A DNA stretch of 17,625 nt from an uncultured archaeon (GCA_902384455.1 CABMCB010000005.1:1-17625), one strand, 5' to 3'. Shown: positions 11,343-17,625, counted from the stretch's first letter. The notes: generated from the letters alone by a model not told the origin. Numbers and translations are program-made.

Positions 11343-11894
11343 ATGAAACTCTCGCTCCCAAACTACTGGACCCTCTTCGAAGTCGCCGTCTTAGCAGTCA
11401 TCATAATCACGGCAATACACACACTGCCAGGAATCCTCCCTCAAACAATCACCTTCGGTATAGCCCTATTCCTTCTTGTCGGCCTCGCAGCAGGCGCGAC
11501 GTTCGCGTACATGCTCCACCACCAATACACAACAGAAACGCTAATACAGCTCCACCCCAACGAACACATAATACTGGAGAAAGGCGACGACATAAACGGC
11601 GTATACGTGATGCCAAGAGGGCCGGACGGCAAACCCCACAGCAGATTCCCAGCAACACGCGCCAAAATATACCTGACTAACCTGGGCATCATCACAGAAC
11701 AACCAGGAAGCGGAATAATAACGTTCTTCATACCCCTGTTCGCAATACGCCACATAGGCCACGAAGGAAACTACCTGATAATACAGTCCTTCGACGCAGA
11801 CGACGAATTCATACAGCTCGACCTCCTCACAGGCCCAGACACAGAAATCTGGTTCCAGAACGTGATGAAAGCGGTAGCCCAAACAACCGCCTGA
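11343..11894 (+). CDS. Hypothetical membrane protein: 2 N-terminal TM helices plus a possible PH/GRAM-like domain
   Basis: Two hydrophobic helices, then LHPNEHIILE, KIYLTNLGII, IPLFAI and a C-terminal WFQNV helix, a pattern typical of prokaryotic PH-like folds (inference). Confidence 0.68.
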   Translation: MKLSLPNYWTLFEVAVLAVIIITAIHTLPGILPQTITFGIALFLLVGLAAGATFAYMLHHQYTTETLIQLHPNEHIILEKGDDINGVYVMPRGPDGKPHSRFPATRAKIYLTNLGIITEQPGSGIITFFIPLFAIRHIGHEGNYLIIQSFDADDEFIQLDLLTGPDTEIWFQNVMKAVAQTTA

Positions 11895-13402: not shown

Positions 13403-14317
13403 ATGAAGATTCTAAACGCCGCCCTCCTGCTCGTCCTCATAGCGTCCTCAGTCAACGCGGTAGACATATCCATATTCGACGACCTGACAAGCAACGCGCT
13501 ACTTACGGAAAACATCACTCTCACATTCACCCCGGCGGAAAATACATACTCCTTCCACATACCAGACGGCGTCCAAGACGTATCCGCATACGGCGGCAGC
13601 ATAACAAACAACACATTCACACCAGACAACAAAACATGCGGATCACCCTGCATAGCAACAATCTCCTACACGCAAACCGACGCCCTAGAAAGCATACCAA
13701 ACAACAGAAAACGAGTAAACCGAATATACCTGTTTCCCGCAGAAGTAAGAAACTTCACTGTAACAATAGCACTACCACCCGAATACGTCCTGGACGCACC
13801 ATCAAGATCATACGCCATAGTCCCCCCCGCATCAACCCTCTCAACAGACGGCACCAGAACCTACATCACATGGACAAGCCAAAACCCACAACTGCCCCGC
13901 GCATACATACTACTACTATCCAAAATCAATAACCACGACGAAGACGGCCTTCAAAGCCTAACGTCAGAACTACTCGAATGGCAAACATACGCAGTAAGCG
14001 CAGTATTCGCCTGCTTCGGCTTCATCGCAGGACTCCTATACAACAAACGCAAGAAAAAAGAAGAAGGCACAACAATAGAATCAATACCCGACTCAGTGCT
14101 CACCCCCGACGAAAAAACAATAGTAACGACATTAGAAGAAAGCGGCCGCATAAACCAGAAGGAGATAGCGCGTAAGACGGGTTACTCTAAGGCTAAGGTT
14201 TCGGCTGTTGTGGCTAATCTTGAGGGCAAGAGGGTGGTTGAGCGGGAGCGTGCCGGGCGGTCTTACATCGTGCAGATGGCTAAGAAAGTAGTTAAAGAAC
14301 GGCGTAAACAGCATTAA
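13403..14317 (+). CDS. Membrane-anchored winged-HTH protein (signal peptide, extracellular beta domain, TM helix, cytoplasmic wHTH; COG2512-like)
   Basis: Signal peptide MKILNAALLLVLIASSVNA, beta-rich ectodomain with N-x-S/T sequons and a CGSPC pair, TM YAVSAVFACFGFIAGLLY followed by NKRKKK, then wHTH LTPDEKTIV...INQKEIARKTGYSKAKVSAVVANLEGKRVVERERAGR. Confidence 0.85.
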   Translation: MKILNAALLLVLIASSVNAVDISIFDDLTSNALLTENITLTFTPAENTYSFHIPDGVQDVSAYGGSITNNTFTPDNKTCGSPCIATISYTQTDALESIPNNRKRVNRIYLFPAEVRNFTVTIALPPEYVLDAPSRSYAIVPPASTLSTDGTRTYITWTSQNPQLPRAYILLLSKINNHDEDGLQSLTSELLEWQTYAVSAVFACFGFIAGLLYNKRKKKEEGTTIESIPDSVLTPDEKTIVTTLEESGRINQKEIARKTGYSKAKVSAVVANLEGKRVVERERAGRSYIVQMAKKVVKERRKQH

Positions 14318-14357
14318 TTCAGCCTTTAAATGTGTTTTTTCTATTTAAACGCAATTC

Positions 14358-14494
14358 TGAACCGTCGTGAACCTTAATAACCTGTTTTGTTATCAAAAAG
14401 GCCTTCTTTCAGTTGTAAGTTGGAATGGTTTGTGTAAAGAATTAAATACTCCCCTTCACGCATTCAAATTCCAGTTCGCTTCAATTCAAGCGAA
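14358..14494 (+). promoter_or_regulatory. Promoter with candidate operator sites upstream of the secreted-protein/apbE operon
   Basis: TGAACC direct repeats at 14358 and 14368 (TAACC at 14378). TATA-like ATTAAATA at 14441-14448 with a purine-rich BRE-like sequence before it. Perfect inverted repeat TTCGCTT-N6-AAGCGAA at 14475-14494. Confidence 0.5.
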
Positions 14495-14505
14495 TCCAAT
14501 AAAAA

Positions 14506-15216
14506 ATGACAAACAAAAAAAGGATTGGAAAATTACTCATACTCCTAATGATTTTCGGGCTGGCGTTGTCTCAGATAGCTGCCGCAGAAGGAGATGATTA
14601 CACCGAAAGAGAACAAGCGAACGAAAACAGCTTGCTAATAGAACCGAATTCAACCGATCAATCGCAAGACGGTTATACGCATAATGCGACAGAACAAAGA
14701 GTCAATGAGCATGAAACGGAAGAAGAGGACGACTACACATACGTCAAACCCAACCCATCGCAGGACCCTAACGCAGACGACGACCACGACGGAGTATCAA
14801 ACAGATACGACCTCTACCCCGGCTACGACGACGGCCACTTCACAGGTGTGGACGACGATGACACAGATTACTCAAACAGAACCATCATAGAAAATTCCAG
14901 TAAACAAAGAGAAAACAATTCCTCCGGCAAAAACGAAACATCCGACGCAGAAGACATAAAAGAAGGCACTCATCCGGCAGAAAACCGAACAGCGGAAAAA
15001 AACACACCTCCCCTAGAAAGCCAAACAACAGAAGATCAAATCCCGTTGACAGAAAATCCAGTAAGCAAAGAAGAAACAACAACCCCCTCAGTCATAAACC
15101 CCACAGACACACAGAACACGACGGCATCCCAGACTGAAGCAAACGCAGACGGAAACACAAACACCCCCGCCCCAGCAACAAATGATAACACCCCCACCAC
15201 CAGCCAGCAACAATAG
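14506..15216 (+). CDS. Secreted acidic low-complexity protein with a TSP3-like Ca-binding motif; the frame continues past TAG 15214-15216 to 15393
   Basis: Signal peptide MTNKKRIGKLLILLMIFGLALSQIAAA, motif DPNADDDHDGVSNRYDLYP, D/E/T/N-rich sequence, nine N-x-S/T sequons. Confidence 0.8.
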   Translation: MTNKKRIGKLLILLMIFGLALSQIAAAEGDDYTEREQANENSLLIEPNSTDQSQDGYTHNATEQRVNEHETEEEDDYTYVKPNPSQDPNADDDHDGVSNRYDLYPGYDDGHFTGVDDDDTDYSNRTIIENSSKQRENNSSGKNETSDAEDIKEGTHPAENRTAEKNTPPLESQTTEDQIPLTENPVSKEETTTPSVINPTDTQNTTASQTEANADGNTNTPAPATNDNTPTTSQQQ

Positions 15217-15393
15217 CCAGACCAAACGCCTCAAAAAGAACATAAGACCCAAACAACCATTTCAACGCCAAACGACGCACAACCAGAAACAACCCCCCCC
15301 CCAAATAACCATCAAACCTCCGCCCTAAACACACTGCTACGCTACTTAGGCCAAATGCTAGAACTATTCGGATTCAAAACCAACCCTGCATAG
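15217..15393 (+). pseudogene. In-frame C-terminal continuation of the secreted protein beyond an amber codon
   Basis: 58 sense codons (PDQTPQKEHKTQTTISTPNDAQPETTPPPNNHQTSALNTLLRYLGQMLELFGFKTNPA) end at TAG 15391-15393, 4 nt before the apbE ATG. Confidence 0.7.
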
Positions 15394-15397
15394 GAAA

Positions 15398-16261
15398 ATG
15401 GACTACGACATATCGCAAACAACGCACCTAATGGGCGGAGACCTACGCATAACAATAACCTCACCGCACCCGCAGAAAGCATTACAAGCGATAAACGCCG
15501 CATTCCAAGAAGCAAAGCGACTCGAAGGCATTTTCAGCGTCTACGACCCCCAAAGCGAACTATCCCGCCTAAACAAAGAACGCACGCTGACCGTAAGCAA
15601 AGACCTCCGCACAGTACTATGGCGAGCCCGATGGCACGCGGAAATATCGGGCGGACTGTTCAACCCAGCAATAGGAAACGAAATAATAGCGGCAAAAAAC
15701 TACATACAAAACGGCGGAACACCACCTCATAAACCCATCCACGACGGACACTACCGGAAAATAAAATTCGACGGCAAAACAGTCTCATTAGGACACGCCC
15801 CATACACAATAGACCTGGGAGGAATAGCCAAAGGATACATAGTAGACAAACTCGTAGAAACCCTCAAAAAAGAAGGAACAAAACAAGGCATAGTCGACGC
15901 CCGAGGAGACATACGCGTCTTCGGACCACGCCCCATAAAAATCCAGGTGGAAGACCCGCAAGACTCCAAAAAAAGCAAGCACACATTCATGCTGAAAGAC
16001 GCCGCAGTCGCAACATCCGGCAACTACCGGCAACACAGAGAAAAAACCGGCCACATAATAAACCCATTCAACACCCCCCCTCAAATACTTTCCGCATCAG
16101 TCATCAAAGAAACATGCGCCGACGCAGACGCACTAACCAAAACCATATTCAACCTACCGCTGGCAAAAGCAATATCCGCGATCAACCACGGAGTCATAAT
16201 AGCATCCGACGGAAAAGTACACGCAAAAGGCATAGCAGCCGCGACCACGGAGGCGGCGTAA
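15398..16261 (+). CDS. apbE: FAD:protein FMN transferase (ApbE family), no signal peptide
   Basis: HLMGG, FSVYDPQSELSRLN, GLFNPAIG, IDLGGIAKGYIVD, GDIR, VATSGNY, HIINP, ADALT. Confidence 0.95.
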   Translation: MDYDISQTTHLMGGDLRITITSPHPQKALQAINAAFQEAKRLEGIFSVYDPQSELSRLNKERTLTVSKDLRTVLWRARWHAEISGGLFNPAIGNEIIAAKNYIQNGGTPPHKPIHDGHYRKIKFDGKTVSLGHAPYTIDLGGIAKGYIVDKLVETLKKEGTKQGIVDARGDIRVFGPRPIKIQVEDPQDSKKSKHTFMLKDAAVATSGNYRQHREKTGHIINPFNTPPQILSASVIKETCADADALTKTIFNLPLAKAISAINHGVIIASDGKVHAKGIAAATTEAA

Positions 16262-17097
16262 TGAACCTCCCGGAAAAAATCCTGTTGTCCATAGCAATCA
16301 CGACATCCCTGCTACTAATCTACTTCACCCTATACATGACGTCAGACACACCATACGTCTGGTACTTCACCCGAGCCACAGGACTTCTAGCCGCAGCACT
16401 CCTCACAACCTCCATCTTCACAAGCATAATAAAAAAAACATTCAAAACCAACGCGCCACAAAAACTACTCCACCTCCACAAATGGACATCGATAGGCGCA
16501 CTAATCACAGTATTCCTACACGGCACCTCAGTAATATTCGACCACTACCAATGGAAACTCGGCATAACAAACGTCCTCGGCCTTGATTACCACAACCGGT
16601 GGGTGGCGCTGGTGTCTGCAGGAAGCATCGCTTTCTATCTAATGGTGATAGTCGCGCTAACATCCATCACGCCATCAATGATGCGCAGGGTGGGCGTAAA
16701 ATGGCGGCTGATCCATTACGCAAGCTATGTAGTGTTTTTGCTGGGCTACATTCATTCGGTCAACCTGGGGACTGACGTGCGGCATTCGTTCTTTTCGGTC
16801 ATGGTTTTGCCCGCCTTCCAGGCGACTTTCTTAGCGTTTATAGTGCTGTTCATAACACGCATAGTAAAGACGAATTCGATTTTTCAAACCAACTTGGATA
16901 CGGCGGCGTTCGCCATAGTATTGGGGCTAATACTCTTTACTTTGCTGTCTGCCTTGCTGACGTCAGTTGAAACACTGCAGATGACAGACAGCTTACGGCA
17001 GAACATCACGGAAGTATCGCAGAACATGGCTTCTTTGCAACAGGAAGGGGATGTGCTATCTCGCGTCGTATCAGCAATCACCGGGGGCGCAAAATGA
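16261..17097 (+). CDS. Ferric-reductase-like / MsrQ-like heme-b transmembrane protein with a C-terminal TM and coiled-coil extension
   Basis: ATG 16261 overlaps the apbE TAA and follows GGAGG. Motifs WYFTRATG, LHLHKW, FLHG, ALTS, WRLIHYASY...YIHS (four heme-ligand His positions). About 7-8 TM helices. Confidence 0.88.
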   Translation: MNLPEKILLSIAITTSLLLIYFTLYMTSDTPYVWYFTRATGLLAAALLTTSIFTSIIKKTFKTNAPQKLLHLHKWTSIGALITVFLHGTSVIFDHYQWKLGITNVLGLDYHNRWVALVSAGSIAFYLMVIVALTSITPSMMRRVGVKWRLIHYASYVVFLLGYIHSVNLGTDVRHSFFSVMVLPAFQATFLAFIVLFITRIVKTNSIFQTNLDTAAFAIVLGLILFTLLSALLTSVETLQMTDSLRQNITEVSQNMASLQQEGDVLSRVVSAITGGAK

Positions 17098-17625
17098 ACG
17101 TTCAGAAAATAATTCTCGCAGGATTCATGACGATGCTTCTTGGCGTAAGCATTTTCTCATGGGCTTATGCTGCGTATGTGCAAGAGCAGACGAAAGAGGT
17201 TCGAACCCAGCTTTCAGACATGCAAAACCAGTATCAGCGCCTAGCCCTCACAACAGAATTATTGAAGCGGCAGAAACAGGACCTCCTAAGCATAATTAAC
17301 CAAACACGCGTACAAAACGGCGGCTCACAAAAAGGAATTCCTGCCTTAGACCCACTGTTAGCAGACGACCCCCCTGCCGCAGACCCCGCAATAACAGATG
17401 ACCCACCGGCGACAGACCCTTCAACAGCAAATGACCCCACAACCACATCCATAACCAATACAGATCCGACAACGCCCACAACATTAAAGACGACCTCAAC
17501 TACAACCCCCAAATCAACAACCACAAAAACCACAAAATCGACAACCACAACAAGCTTGAAGGCAACCACTACTTTACCCTCCCCAACCACGACCACCACT
17601 TTAGCGTCCGCCCCCACAACCACCA
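17094..17625 (+). CDS. Membrane-anchored protein with coiled coil and Asp/Pro/Thr-rich stalk (3' end beyond window)
   Basis: Not in the ORF track. ATGA overlap with the previous gene. Translation: MNVQKIILAGFMTMLLGVSIFSWAYAAY-VQEQTKEVRTQLSDMQNQYQRLALTTELLKRQKQDLLSII...DPPAADP...TTSTTTPKSTTTKTT..., open to the window end. Confidence 0.85.
   Translation, partial: MNVQKIILAGFMTMLLGVSIFSWAYAAYVQEQTKEVRTQLSDMQNQYQRLALTTELLKRQKQDLLSIINQTRVQNGGSQKGIPALDPLLADDPPAADPAITDDPPATDPSTANDPTTTSITNTDPTTPTTLKTTSTTTPKSTTTKTTKSTTTTSLKATTTLPSPTTTTTLASAPTTT
17349..17447 (+). repeat. Three degenerate 33-nt (11-aa) coding tandem repeats
   Basis: DPLLADDPPAA / DPAITDDPPAT / DPSTANDPTTT. Confidence 0.65.

Follow-up and report, generated by a model that had tools for sequence, protein, structure and literature searches.

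ApbE-made flavoproteins are a known means by which prokaryotes wire redox chemistry outside the cytoplasm and, to our knowledge, all published substrates of ApbE are folded flavin-binding domains. The closest described systems are the MsrQ-like flavinylation clusters, which in the available text of the survey by Meheust et al. (2021, eLife, PMC8238504) are mainly actinobacterial, contain an FMN_bind protein and are proposed to be linked to iron reduction. To be kept in that survey, a cluster needed a signal peptide or lipobox on ApbE or FMN_bind, and the survey left unexplained a set of 'orphan' apbE genomes (4%, 670 genomes; PMC8238504). Here we describe a related locus at the end of an Altiarchaeota contig, C5, whose entire 17,625 bases were analysed and are called the window below; the genome it belongs to is 2.41 Mb in size and 91.9% complete. 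From position 13403 to the contig end there are five genes on the + strand. We read them, with a probability of about 0.6, as one regulator gene followed by a four-gene operon for an MsrQ/NOX-like electron exporter, whose flavin carrier would be the fold-less tail of a membrane-anchored stalk protein. The features are as follows (coordinates, strand, description, basis):

13403..14317, +: membrane-spanning one-component regulator, 304 aa (Pfam, AlphaFold model, fold matches)
14318..14505, no strand: spacer of 188 bp between the regulator gene and the four packed genes (sequence features)
14506..15393, +: acidic secreted protein, its frame containing a TAG at 15214-15216 (translation)
15398..16261, +: leaderless ApbE-family FAD:protein FMN transferase, 287 aa (Pfam, structure matches, tree)
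16261..17097, +: Ferric_reduct-family (MsrQ/NOX/STEAP) cytochrome b, predicted di-haem, 278 aa, seven helices (Pfam, model)
17094..17625, +: stalk protein, 3' end missing (translation, N-terminal profile, gene position)
17598..17609, +: the word T-L-A-S, aa 169-172, inside the Thr-rich linker of the stalk (MAFFT alignment)

An earlier note on this DNA had claimed five co-oriented genes, and all of them are present at the places it gave and with the junctions it gave: TAG 15391-15393, 4 nt and ATG 15398 between the acidic-protein gene and apbE, TAATG 16259-16263 joining apbE to the PF01794 (Ferric_reduct) gene, and ATGA 17094-17097 between the latter and the stalk gene. Its identification of a winged helix-turn-helix (wHTH) protein, an ApbE and a ferric-reductase-like cytochrome b agrees with the Pfam matches to DUF7343/MarR, ApbE and Ferric_reduct. 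The stop at 15393 does end the frame of the acidic protein, as the note had it, but the in-frame TAG at 15214-15216 had been silently read through. Overall, the reading offered there, a module of ApbE, haem protein and stalk, is partly supported.

The gene set and the tail of the stalk protein

Searching one genome per species with the cytochrome alignment yielded 10 loci, which belong to Altiarchaeota, Nanoarchaeota, Woesearchaeota, Aenigmatarchaeota and to three metagenome-assembled genomes labelled Methanosarcinales; a metagenome scan gave 29 more, two of which (matches over just 21 residues) were dropped. Profile searches were then made over 38 loci, the window included. The usual order is a divergent wHTH gene and then the genes for the acidic protein, a ferredoxin, an FNR-like protein, ApbE, the cytochrome and the stalk, with these frequencies:

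ApbE immediately 5' of the cytochrome: 29/29 loci with at least 900 bp upstream
Stalk gene: 31/38 loci
Ferredoxin: 14/38 loci
Acidic protein: 14/38 loci
FNR-like protein: 13/38 loci
wHTH: 13/38 loci, and 13/18 of those with at least 1300 bp upstream

The seven loci with no stalk match are the window, five others cut by a contig end, and L064, which we do not regard as the same system (weak Ferric_reduct match, ApbE in the lipoprotein clade, no stalk). Neither do we count two Altiarchaeota genomes of another family (G059, G060), whose Ferric_reduct protein is differently built and which have no ApbE. In 6/6 further Nanoarchaeota genomes the order is FNR-like, ApbE, Ferric_reduct and stalk, with TRAS or SRAS tails. 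An arrangement that recurs in 37 other loci and in these six genomes is far from a chance one; relatives keep the gene order, and the wHTH and the acidic protein, previously proposed as members of the module, both recur in related clusters. The additional genes of DPANN clusters have Pfam matches, in the one cluster so analysed, to Fer4_15 and to FAD_binding_8/NAD_binding_1/NAD_binding_6, a NOX-type dehydrogenase module that here has a gene to itself. From the Altiarchaeota versions of the cluster, the window's included, the ferredoxin and FNR-like genes are missing.

The evidence that carries our reading lies at the C-terminus of the stalk. In the loci, 32 of 34 stalk open reading frames (ORFs) end in T.AS, and every locus with a stalk bears at least one T-x-A-S tail (31/31). 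An exhaustive HMMER search of 1.84 billion representative proteins with a nine-sequence stalk profile (E <= 1e-3) returned 95 proteins, 89 of them with [TS]-x-[AG]-S at the C-terminus and 79 with TxAS. The terminal residues are TRAS in 58, TSAS in 9, TGAS in 4, TAAS in 4, TKAS in 2, TQAS in 2, SRAS in 8, TRGS in 2 and others in 6, two of these others (P0073 and P0088) being long paralogues in which the motif occurs internally, 2 and 5 times respectively. Most of the profile score comes from the N-terminal anchor and helix. As a background, [TS]-x-[AG]-S ends are found in the genome on 8 of 3578 ORFs (those of 100 aa or more) and in the loci on 1 of 422 non-stalk ORFs. The last eight stalk residues have the consensus P-[PR]-R-V-T-R-A-S-COOH, and this tail is the only conserved feature of the stalk beyond its anchor and helix. 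The conserved Ser/Thr tail that the earlier note had proposed to look for is thus present on the stalk of the relatives, where a C-terminal T-x-A-S, TGAS included, is nearly universal. A word-index homologue search with the stalk profile added little, giving three proteins, all of the query's own family, from 7999 candidates swamped by low-complexity words.

The ApbE site given in the available text of the survey cited above is [S/T]GA[S/T], of which the last residue bears the modification (PMC8238504). The stalk tail has its [ST], its A and its final S in common with this site, and is identical to it in the four proteins ending in TGAS. No D..[ST]GA[ST] word was found in the window, in agreement with the claimed absence there of a canonical DxxSGAT. 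From the sequences we infer that the tail of the stalk would be flavinylated. A sorting signal of the PGF-CTERM/archaeosortase type was considered and rejected: the motif is the very end of the protein and no hydrophobic helix follows it.

The tail might instead have nothing to do with flavin, being a docking or processing signal or a site of glycosylation or phosphorylation, with ApbE acting on a loop of the cytochrome, on the FNR-like partner or in FAD/FMN handling; some ApbE/Ftp proteins are in fact annotated as FAD-handling enzymes. We hold this to be improbable. It would fit with the Arg that replaces the Gly of the known site in 68 of the 89 tails, with the lack of an Asp upstream of the tail, and with the flavinylation literature, in whose accessible text we did not find modification of the very last residue by ApbE described. 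Yet in the stalk, a fast-evolving protein whose gene always adjoins that of ApbE, nothing but the tail is invariant, the exact known site is present in 4 of the 95 and recurs with its variants (VTGASG, VTSASG) inside paralogues, and the invariant columns of the cytochrome alignment hold no conserved [ST]GA[ST]-type word.

Second stalk paralogues, at L027:5150-5764 and L030:5693-6376 (genomes G006 and G013), and also P0088, carry two to five internal tail words (VTGASG, YTRASG, VTSASG and ITSASQ), and one paralogue ends in an acidic tail and not in T-x-A-S. Such proteins may be multi-flavinylated tethers.

As the window is a whole contig, its own stalk gene is cut at 17625. The part that is present encodes a signal anchor (aa 6-27, within residues 1-30), a Q/L-rich helical segment (aa 31-82) and a Thr/Pro-rich linker running from aa 83 to at least 177 (37 Thr per 95 residues), and it matches no family of Pfam or NCBIfam. 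Its position and ATGA overlap are the same as those of the relatives' stalk genes, and a profile made from the first 85 residues of 89 family members ranks it first in the genome (E 0.0022, 18.2 bits; next 0.19). In the MAFFT alignment its T-L-A-S falls, in a weak match, on the T, A and S that are invariant in the family tails; the word may be an internal copy of the T-x-A-S site, on evidence that is weak because it can arise by chance in a stretch rich in T, A and S. Contig C77 of the same assembly opens with a Thr-rich open frame ending in ...TTTTTVITRAS, followed by a gene whose product begins MARIHARKKGKSKSKPP and which we take to be ribosomal protein S15. Since, besides this fragment, just 1 of 6661 genome ORFs of at least 60 aa ends in T[RGS]AS, the C77 frame is likely to be the missing stalk end; it is the only likely continuation of the window's stalk, the join being unproven.

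ApbE, the cytochrome and the side of the membrane

The ApbE of the window, the only one in the genome, matches Pfam ApbE (PF02424) with an E of 5.7e-52 (177.3 bits, the cut-off being 25.6, over profile positions 1-256 of 266) and the solved ApbE/Ftp chains 1vrm (1.7e-19) and 4xdt (1.1e-16), the blocks DLGGIAKGY, ATSGNY, HIINP and DADAL being aligned. The corresponding blocks, GxxAKGY, TSG.Y, H-I-I-[DN]-P and [AD]DA[LA], are common to 27 cluster ApbEs and five lipoprotein ApbEs; which of their residues are catalytic is an assumption of ours. The window's protein starts 10 residues before the conserved GG, a start further upstream is impossible, and a hydrophobic leader is absent from it and from every related cluster ApbE with an intact N-terminus. 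It has neither the signal peptide nor the lipobox by which an extracytosolic ApbE is recognised. Extracytoplasmic flavinylation as known from bacteria, on which the earlier note had leaned, hence does not apply, ApbE being leaderless in every case. In a maximum-likelihood tree, from which ORFs shorter than 250 aa or starting at a contig edge were excluded, the 27 cluster ApbEs are split from the five leader-bearing ones (plus that of L064) by a 99/94 branch, the window's ApbE having a long branch (1.58) and a basal place in the cluster clade. Private invariant residues of this clade are D50, S53, E54, L55, K100, D139, R169 and Q212.

Among other genomes of the same family ApbE is found in 8/20, and in genomes of the order's other families in 0/20. 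Two kinds occur in the family: a leaderless one that overlaps a Ferric_reduct gene (3 genomes) and one with a Cys-bearing leader, beside Rnf genes or alone (5 genomes), so that ApbE and Ferric_reduct are adjacent in 3/8 of the ApbE-bearing genomes. In the three leaderless-ApbE genomes, the Ferric_reduct gene is followed by genes for small N-anchored proteins ending in ...VTSAS, ...VTGAS, ...VTRAS and ...TTRAS. In L016 and L021 (relatives G010 and G015) the leader-bearing ApbE adjoins Rnf genes, and RnfG there has a canonical DAITGAT site; both kinds of ApbE together were seen in none of the genomes examined.

The cytochrome matches Pfam Ferric_reduct (PF01794) with an E of 7.3e-11 (42.6 bits against a cut-off of 28; profile positions 1-120 of 121), and its score with the NCBIfam MsrQ equivalog is so far under the cut-off (20.3 bits against 130) that it is not MsrQ itself. 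Four histidines, H73, H87, H152 and H165, are invariant in 11/11 sequences; in the model (pLDDT, the model's own confidence score, 74.8) the first pair lies in helix 67-93 and the second in helix 145-170, and they are the predicted haem ligands. The model has seven helices, the last of which (211-277) is transmembrane (TM) helix 7, extended as a helix of about 35 residues to the C-terminus. Foldseek returned no match to it at E <= 1e-3; the top rows were STEAP1 (3e-2) and SpNOX (4e-2), with STEAP4, NOX5, NOX2 and DUOX1 also present. VIA gave cytochrome b561 (Z 13.2), Dcytb (12.2), SpNOX (11.9) and STEAP1/2/4 (about 11), scores that helical bundles can reach by arrangement alone; every protein in this set of fold neighbours is a di-haem transmembrane reductase. 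The basic loops that follow helices 2 and 4, KKTFKTNAPQKLLHLHK and RRVGVKWR as read from the sequence, predict that the N-terminus is inside and the C-terminal helix outside.

The stalk is predicted to face the same side. Among the 89 of the 95 representatives used for topology (the six without a tail were left out), 88 have one TM helix, its flanks carry a charge of about +2.4 before and -0.6 after, and the N-flank is the more positive in 83; this bias predicts an N-in/C-out orientation, which would place the stalk's C-terminus on the side of the cytochrome's C-terminal helix.

In the mechanism that we propose, ApbE would move FMN from FAD to the last serine of the tail and, in the longer paralogues, to internal copies. 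The cytochrome would accept electrons at the cytoplasmic face, the donor in DPANN being the cluster-encoded FNR-like flavoprotein together with the ferredoxin, and would pass them across two haems to the tail flavin. The stalk helix may pair with the extra C-terminal helix of the cytochrome and so hold the stalk beside it, and with the long Thr/Pro-rich linker of this organism's stalk the flavin would be able to get to acceptors that lie tens of nanometres off the membrane. The most likely guess for the acceptor, because the cytochrome is of the Ferric_reduct family and is accompanied by a His/Asp/Glu-rich protein with repeats of a Ca-binding type, is ferric iron or another metal bound by that acidic protein, in a scheme of metal reduction or uptake. 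The membrane wHTH would sense an outside signal through its Cys-bearing ectodomain and control the operon.

No electron-donor gene is present in the window, and in its organism the donor would be encoded elsewhere. The genome has a single-cluster ferredoxin homologue, on contig C71, and two FNR-like ORFs outside the cluster. PyrK, encoded beside PyrD and PyrF, accounts for one of them; the other, on contig C72 (L076:2208-2909, - strand), is a stand-alone FNR-like protein of 233 aa with FAD_binding_6 and NAD_binding_1, which a profile of the DPANN cluster FNR-like proteins matches at 1.5e-28. It is a candidate for the cytoplasmic donor to the cytochrome, and no more than that.

How a leaderless ApbE could serve a tail that is predicted to be outside admits three possible answers: the tail is modified in the cytoplasm and then exported, it stays inside as an electron entry, or ApbE somehow gets outside. 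The first of these is the one we favour, since a short stalk would be mostly made before its targeting ends and the site is the last residue to leave the cytoplasm; with ApbE cytoplasmic, the tail would most likely be modified before or during export of the C-terminal part. Taken further, and here we are only tentative, the leaderless ApbE clade would flavinylate the last serine in the cytoplasm and the tail would be pulled through the export channel, so that cells with tiny genomes and without a flavin exporter could place a redox cofactor outside, on a fold-less tether of tens of nanometres wired to a NOX-like di-haem cytochrome; the Altiarchaeota stalk might then deliver electrons across the envelope, for example to mineral iron or a partner cell outside.

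The second answer amounts to a different device, in which the stalk is N-out/C-in or not exported, and the FMN tail works in the cytoplasm as the electron entry to the inner haem, replacing the FAD domain of NOX enzymes while the outer haem reduces an external acceptor directly. We think it unlikely, despite several points that speak for it: ApbE is leaderless in all members, the tail is basic, with R at positions -6 and -3, the Altiarchaeota versions, which have no FNR or ferredoxin genes, would profit from a further entry module, and the flavinylated FMN_red proteins bear their site on an unstructured C-terminal extension, as the accessible text on them describes (PMC11334425). Opposed to it are the charge bias in 83 of the 89 stalks, and the seventh helix and basic loops that put the cytochrome's C-terminal helix opposite its N-terminus. 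Thr/Pro-rich linkers, moreover, are typical of extracellular stalks, and the DPANN clusters already have a NOX-type FAD/NAD module.

Conventional targets of ApbE were looked for across the genome. It gave no match to FMN_bind (PF04205), RnfD/NqrB or DUF2271, families for which control genomes were positive, so that the Rnf/Nqr target elsewhere, which the earlier note had named as speaking against the module, did not appear; the window's proteins likewise have no FMN_bind match in Pfam. FMN_bind is found in 0/11 genomes with the cluster, the window's included, against 3/5 genomes of the family with the leader-bearing lipoprotein ApbE. A search of the genome for DUF3570 gave no match, and the control genomes were equally without one. 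Only four D..[ST]GA[ST] words occur in the 894 thousand residues of genome ORFs, about the chance level by a rough residue-frequency estimate, and one of them lies in an ORF of 1503 aa that is presumably glutamate-synthase-like. That ApbE serves an Rnf/Nqr subunit, a fumarate reductase or a NosR-like protein elsewhere, its place beside the cytochrome being incidental, is therefore very improbable: such a target could lie in the unassembled part of the genome, and family relatives do have the second kind of ApbE beside Rnf genes, but against this stand the empty searches here, the lack of FMN_bind in the 10 other cluster genomes, the separate leader-bearing clade formed by the Rnf-linked ApbEs, and the ApbE-cytochrome adjacency in 29/29 loci.

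Returning to the tail as an exported flavin carrier, the following weigh against it: (i) a leaderless ApbE and a stalk C-terminus predicted to be outside require that a flavinylated tail be exported, and we know of no precedent for the export of such a tail. (ii) The x position of the tail is mostly Arg and not Gly, and the upstream Asp of D-x-x-[ST]-G-A-[ST] is missing. (iii) The search profile contained the tail columns and was thus biased somewhat to proteins bearing the motif. (iv) The window stalk's own tail lies beyond the contig end, the original stalk profile misses the gene at 1e-4, the support from the tail-free profile is only E 0.0022, and the ends of C5 and C77 share no sequence. 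(v) The acidic-protein gene is interrupted here by a TAG. (vi) The cluster is rare and patchy, being found in 4/61 Altiarchaeota and 7/301 sampled genomes of the Nanoarchaeota phylum.

The regulator, the acidic protein and the surroundings of the cluster

The regulator consists of a signal peptide, an all-beta ectodomain with a Cys pair (aa 20-174), a TM helix (aa 193-220) and a cytoplasmic MarR-like wHTH (aa 235-297). Pfam places DUF7343 (PF24034) at aa 233-292 with an E of 1.8e-14 (53.7 bits against a cut-off of 27.6) and also gives MarR_2 (7.9e-08). In the AlphaFold model (pLDDT 82.9), the modelled wHTH, residues 228-304, resembles MarR structures (Z about 11, root-mean-square deviation, rmsd, 1.3-3). 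Full-length orthologues of 24-32% identity, in which the Cys pair of the ectodomain is kept, lie divergently oriented beside DPANN clusters. The modelled ectodomain (13460-13924 in the window) resembles the luminal domain of eukaryotic ribophorin I/OST1 (6s7o_E; Z 13.8, rmsd 2.8, 154 residues aligned) and also the N-domain of M1 aminopeptidases (Z about 10-11.5).

Directly after the 14317 stop, the spacer has a T6 run and TTTAAA-type boxes, and the G+C minimum of the contig, 0.443, falls at 14001-15000. The spacer probably holds a putative terminator of the first gene and a putative promoter of the operon.

The acidic protein has a signal peptide, a D/E-rich region, a part rich in T, P, Q and N, and one D.D.DG....D.YPG repeat of the thrombospondin type 3 kind, with the sequence DDDHDGVSNRYDLYPG; it matches no family of Pfam or NCBIfam. 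Acidic proteins of the clusters have in common a signal peptide, a D/E/H-rich stretch, D.D.DG....D.YPG repeats, a hydrophobic C-terminal motif and, usually, the word WDFSDDF, which is missing from the window's protein. The 58 codons from the TAG at 15214-15216 to the TAG at 15391 encode ..LLRYLGQMLELFGF.., the hydrophobic C-terminal motif of the relatives' acidic proteins. Repeat and C-terminal motif both match the acidic proteins of DPANN loci (..FLKFLKLFGLA and ..LSWLGL.., for instance), and they are what joins the window's protein to the family, because a profile made from the DPANN members misses it at 1e-4 or 1e-2. Atlas offers, as a lead only, a likeness to TSP_3/TSP3_bac (scores 0.78-0.80). 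As aragorn found no suppressor tRNA in the genome, the TAG at 15214-15216 would be a truncation, a sequencing error or a site of low-level read-through.

Upstream of the cluster the genes are ordinary archaeal housekeeping genes: an RFC-like AAA+ protein, a DHH/DHHA1 nuclease with a DHH-CID domain, a myo-inositol-1-phosphate synthase with a CDP-alcohol phosphatidyltransferase, a ketopantoate reductase and a protein with a GATase_5 (CobB/CobQ-like) glutamine amidotransferase domain. A protein of 183 aa with two N-terminal membrane helices and no family, its match to Wzz being below threshold, is encoded at 11343-11894, with a mechanosensitive-channel-like gene on one side and that of the DHH nuclease on the other.

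Strand composition switches from A/C-rich to G/T-rich inside the regulator gene (14144) and inside the cytochrome gene (16579), right after GGCC sites, the keto skew flipping at both points from about -0.3 to +0.2 in windows of 100 bases; an A/C-rich strand bias may contribute to the Thr/Pro-rich linker of the stalk. Frames rich in Thr, Ser and Pro are found at many contig ends of the assembly (C19, C20, C24, C32, C46, C55, C71, C76 and C77), which suggests that low-complexity linkers in surface proteins are where the assembly breaks. S/T linkers lie between repeated Cys-rich modules at the start of C20, and the protein at the end of C32 is T-rich and has a membrane anchor at its C-terminus.

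Comparison with known electron-export and flavinylation systems

The window and its relatives share with the MsrQ-like clusters an apbE gene clustered with a PF01794 di-haem membrane protein and a cytoplasmic donor of NAD(P)H type, encoded in the DPANN relatives by an FNR-like gene of its own and often supplied in the published clusters, to judge from the accessible text, as a fused NAD-binding domain (PMC8238504). Unlike them, the window's cluster has an archaeal host, a leaderless ApbE, no FMN_bind in the genome, a seventh cytochrome helix with a long extension, and a fold-less tail as the presumed acceptor.

As in the FMN_red proteins of Huang et al. (2024, mSystems, PMC11334425), the presumed site is on a disordered C-terminal extension and not on an FMN_bind fold. 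In that study, as far as its available text goes, flavinylation was shown by co-expression and by Ser/Thr-to-Ala mutants, and the flavin returns to the pre-existing pocket of a globular enzyme (PMC11334425), whereas the carrier of the window's type has nothing but anchor, helix, linker and tail.

With NOX, ferric reductases, STEAP and b561 (SpNOX 8qt6, STEAP4 6hcy, Dcytb 5zle) the cytochrome has in common the Ferric_reduct family and two His pairs on two helices, and the DPANN relatives encode a FAD_binding_8/NAD_binding-type module as NOX does, there as a separate gene. In those enzymes O2, Fe(III) or ascorbate radicals receive electrons straight from the outer haem, and we know of none of the NOX/STEAP/b561 type with a covalently tethered flavin or an ApbE partner. 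The lipoprotein ApbE that is associated with Rnf and RnfG (DAITGAT; L016 and L021) belongs to the same enzyme family and shares the catalytic blocks; it differs from the cluster ApbE in its separate clade (99/94), its Cys-bearing leader and its link to a canonical FMN_bind substrate.

We found no literature tying ApbE to DPANN or Altiarchaeota, or describing tail-only acceptors, although the supplementary tables of the survey (PMC8238504), which lay outside the search, may list such clusters. If our reading is true, its consequences are several: (i) a carrier reduced to anchor, helix, floppy linker and four-residue tag would be a new class of ApbE substrate. (ii) The tail would be a minimal natural 'flavin tag' of practical use. 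(iii) A tail-type carrier would explain orphan ApbEs. (iv) DPANN and Altiarchaeota, whose energy metabolism and surface chemistry are poorly known, would gain a concrete electron-export device. (v) A leaderless ApbE set against an outside-facing tail poses the sharp question of how a peptide bearing its cofactor crosses the membrane. Within this family of clusters, the window is an Altiarchaeota version, with no FNR or ferredoxin genes, a long Thr-rich linker, a conserved membrane wHTH regulator and an acidic repeat protein.

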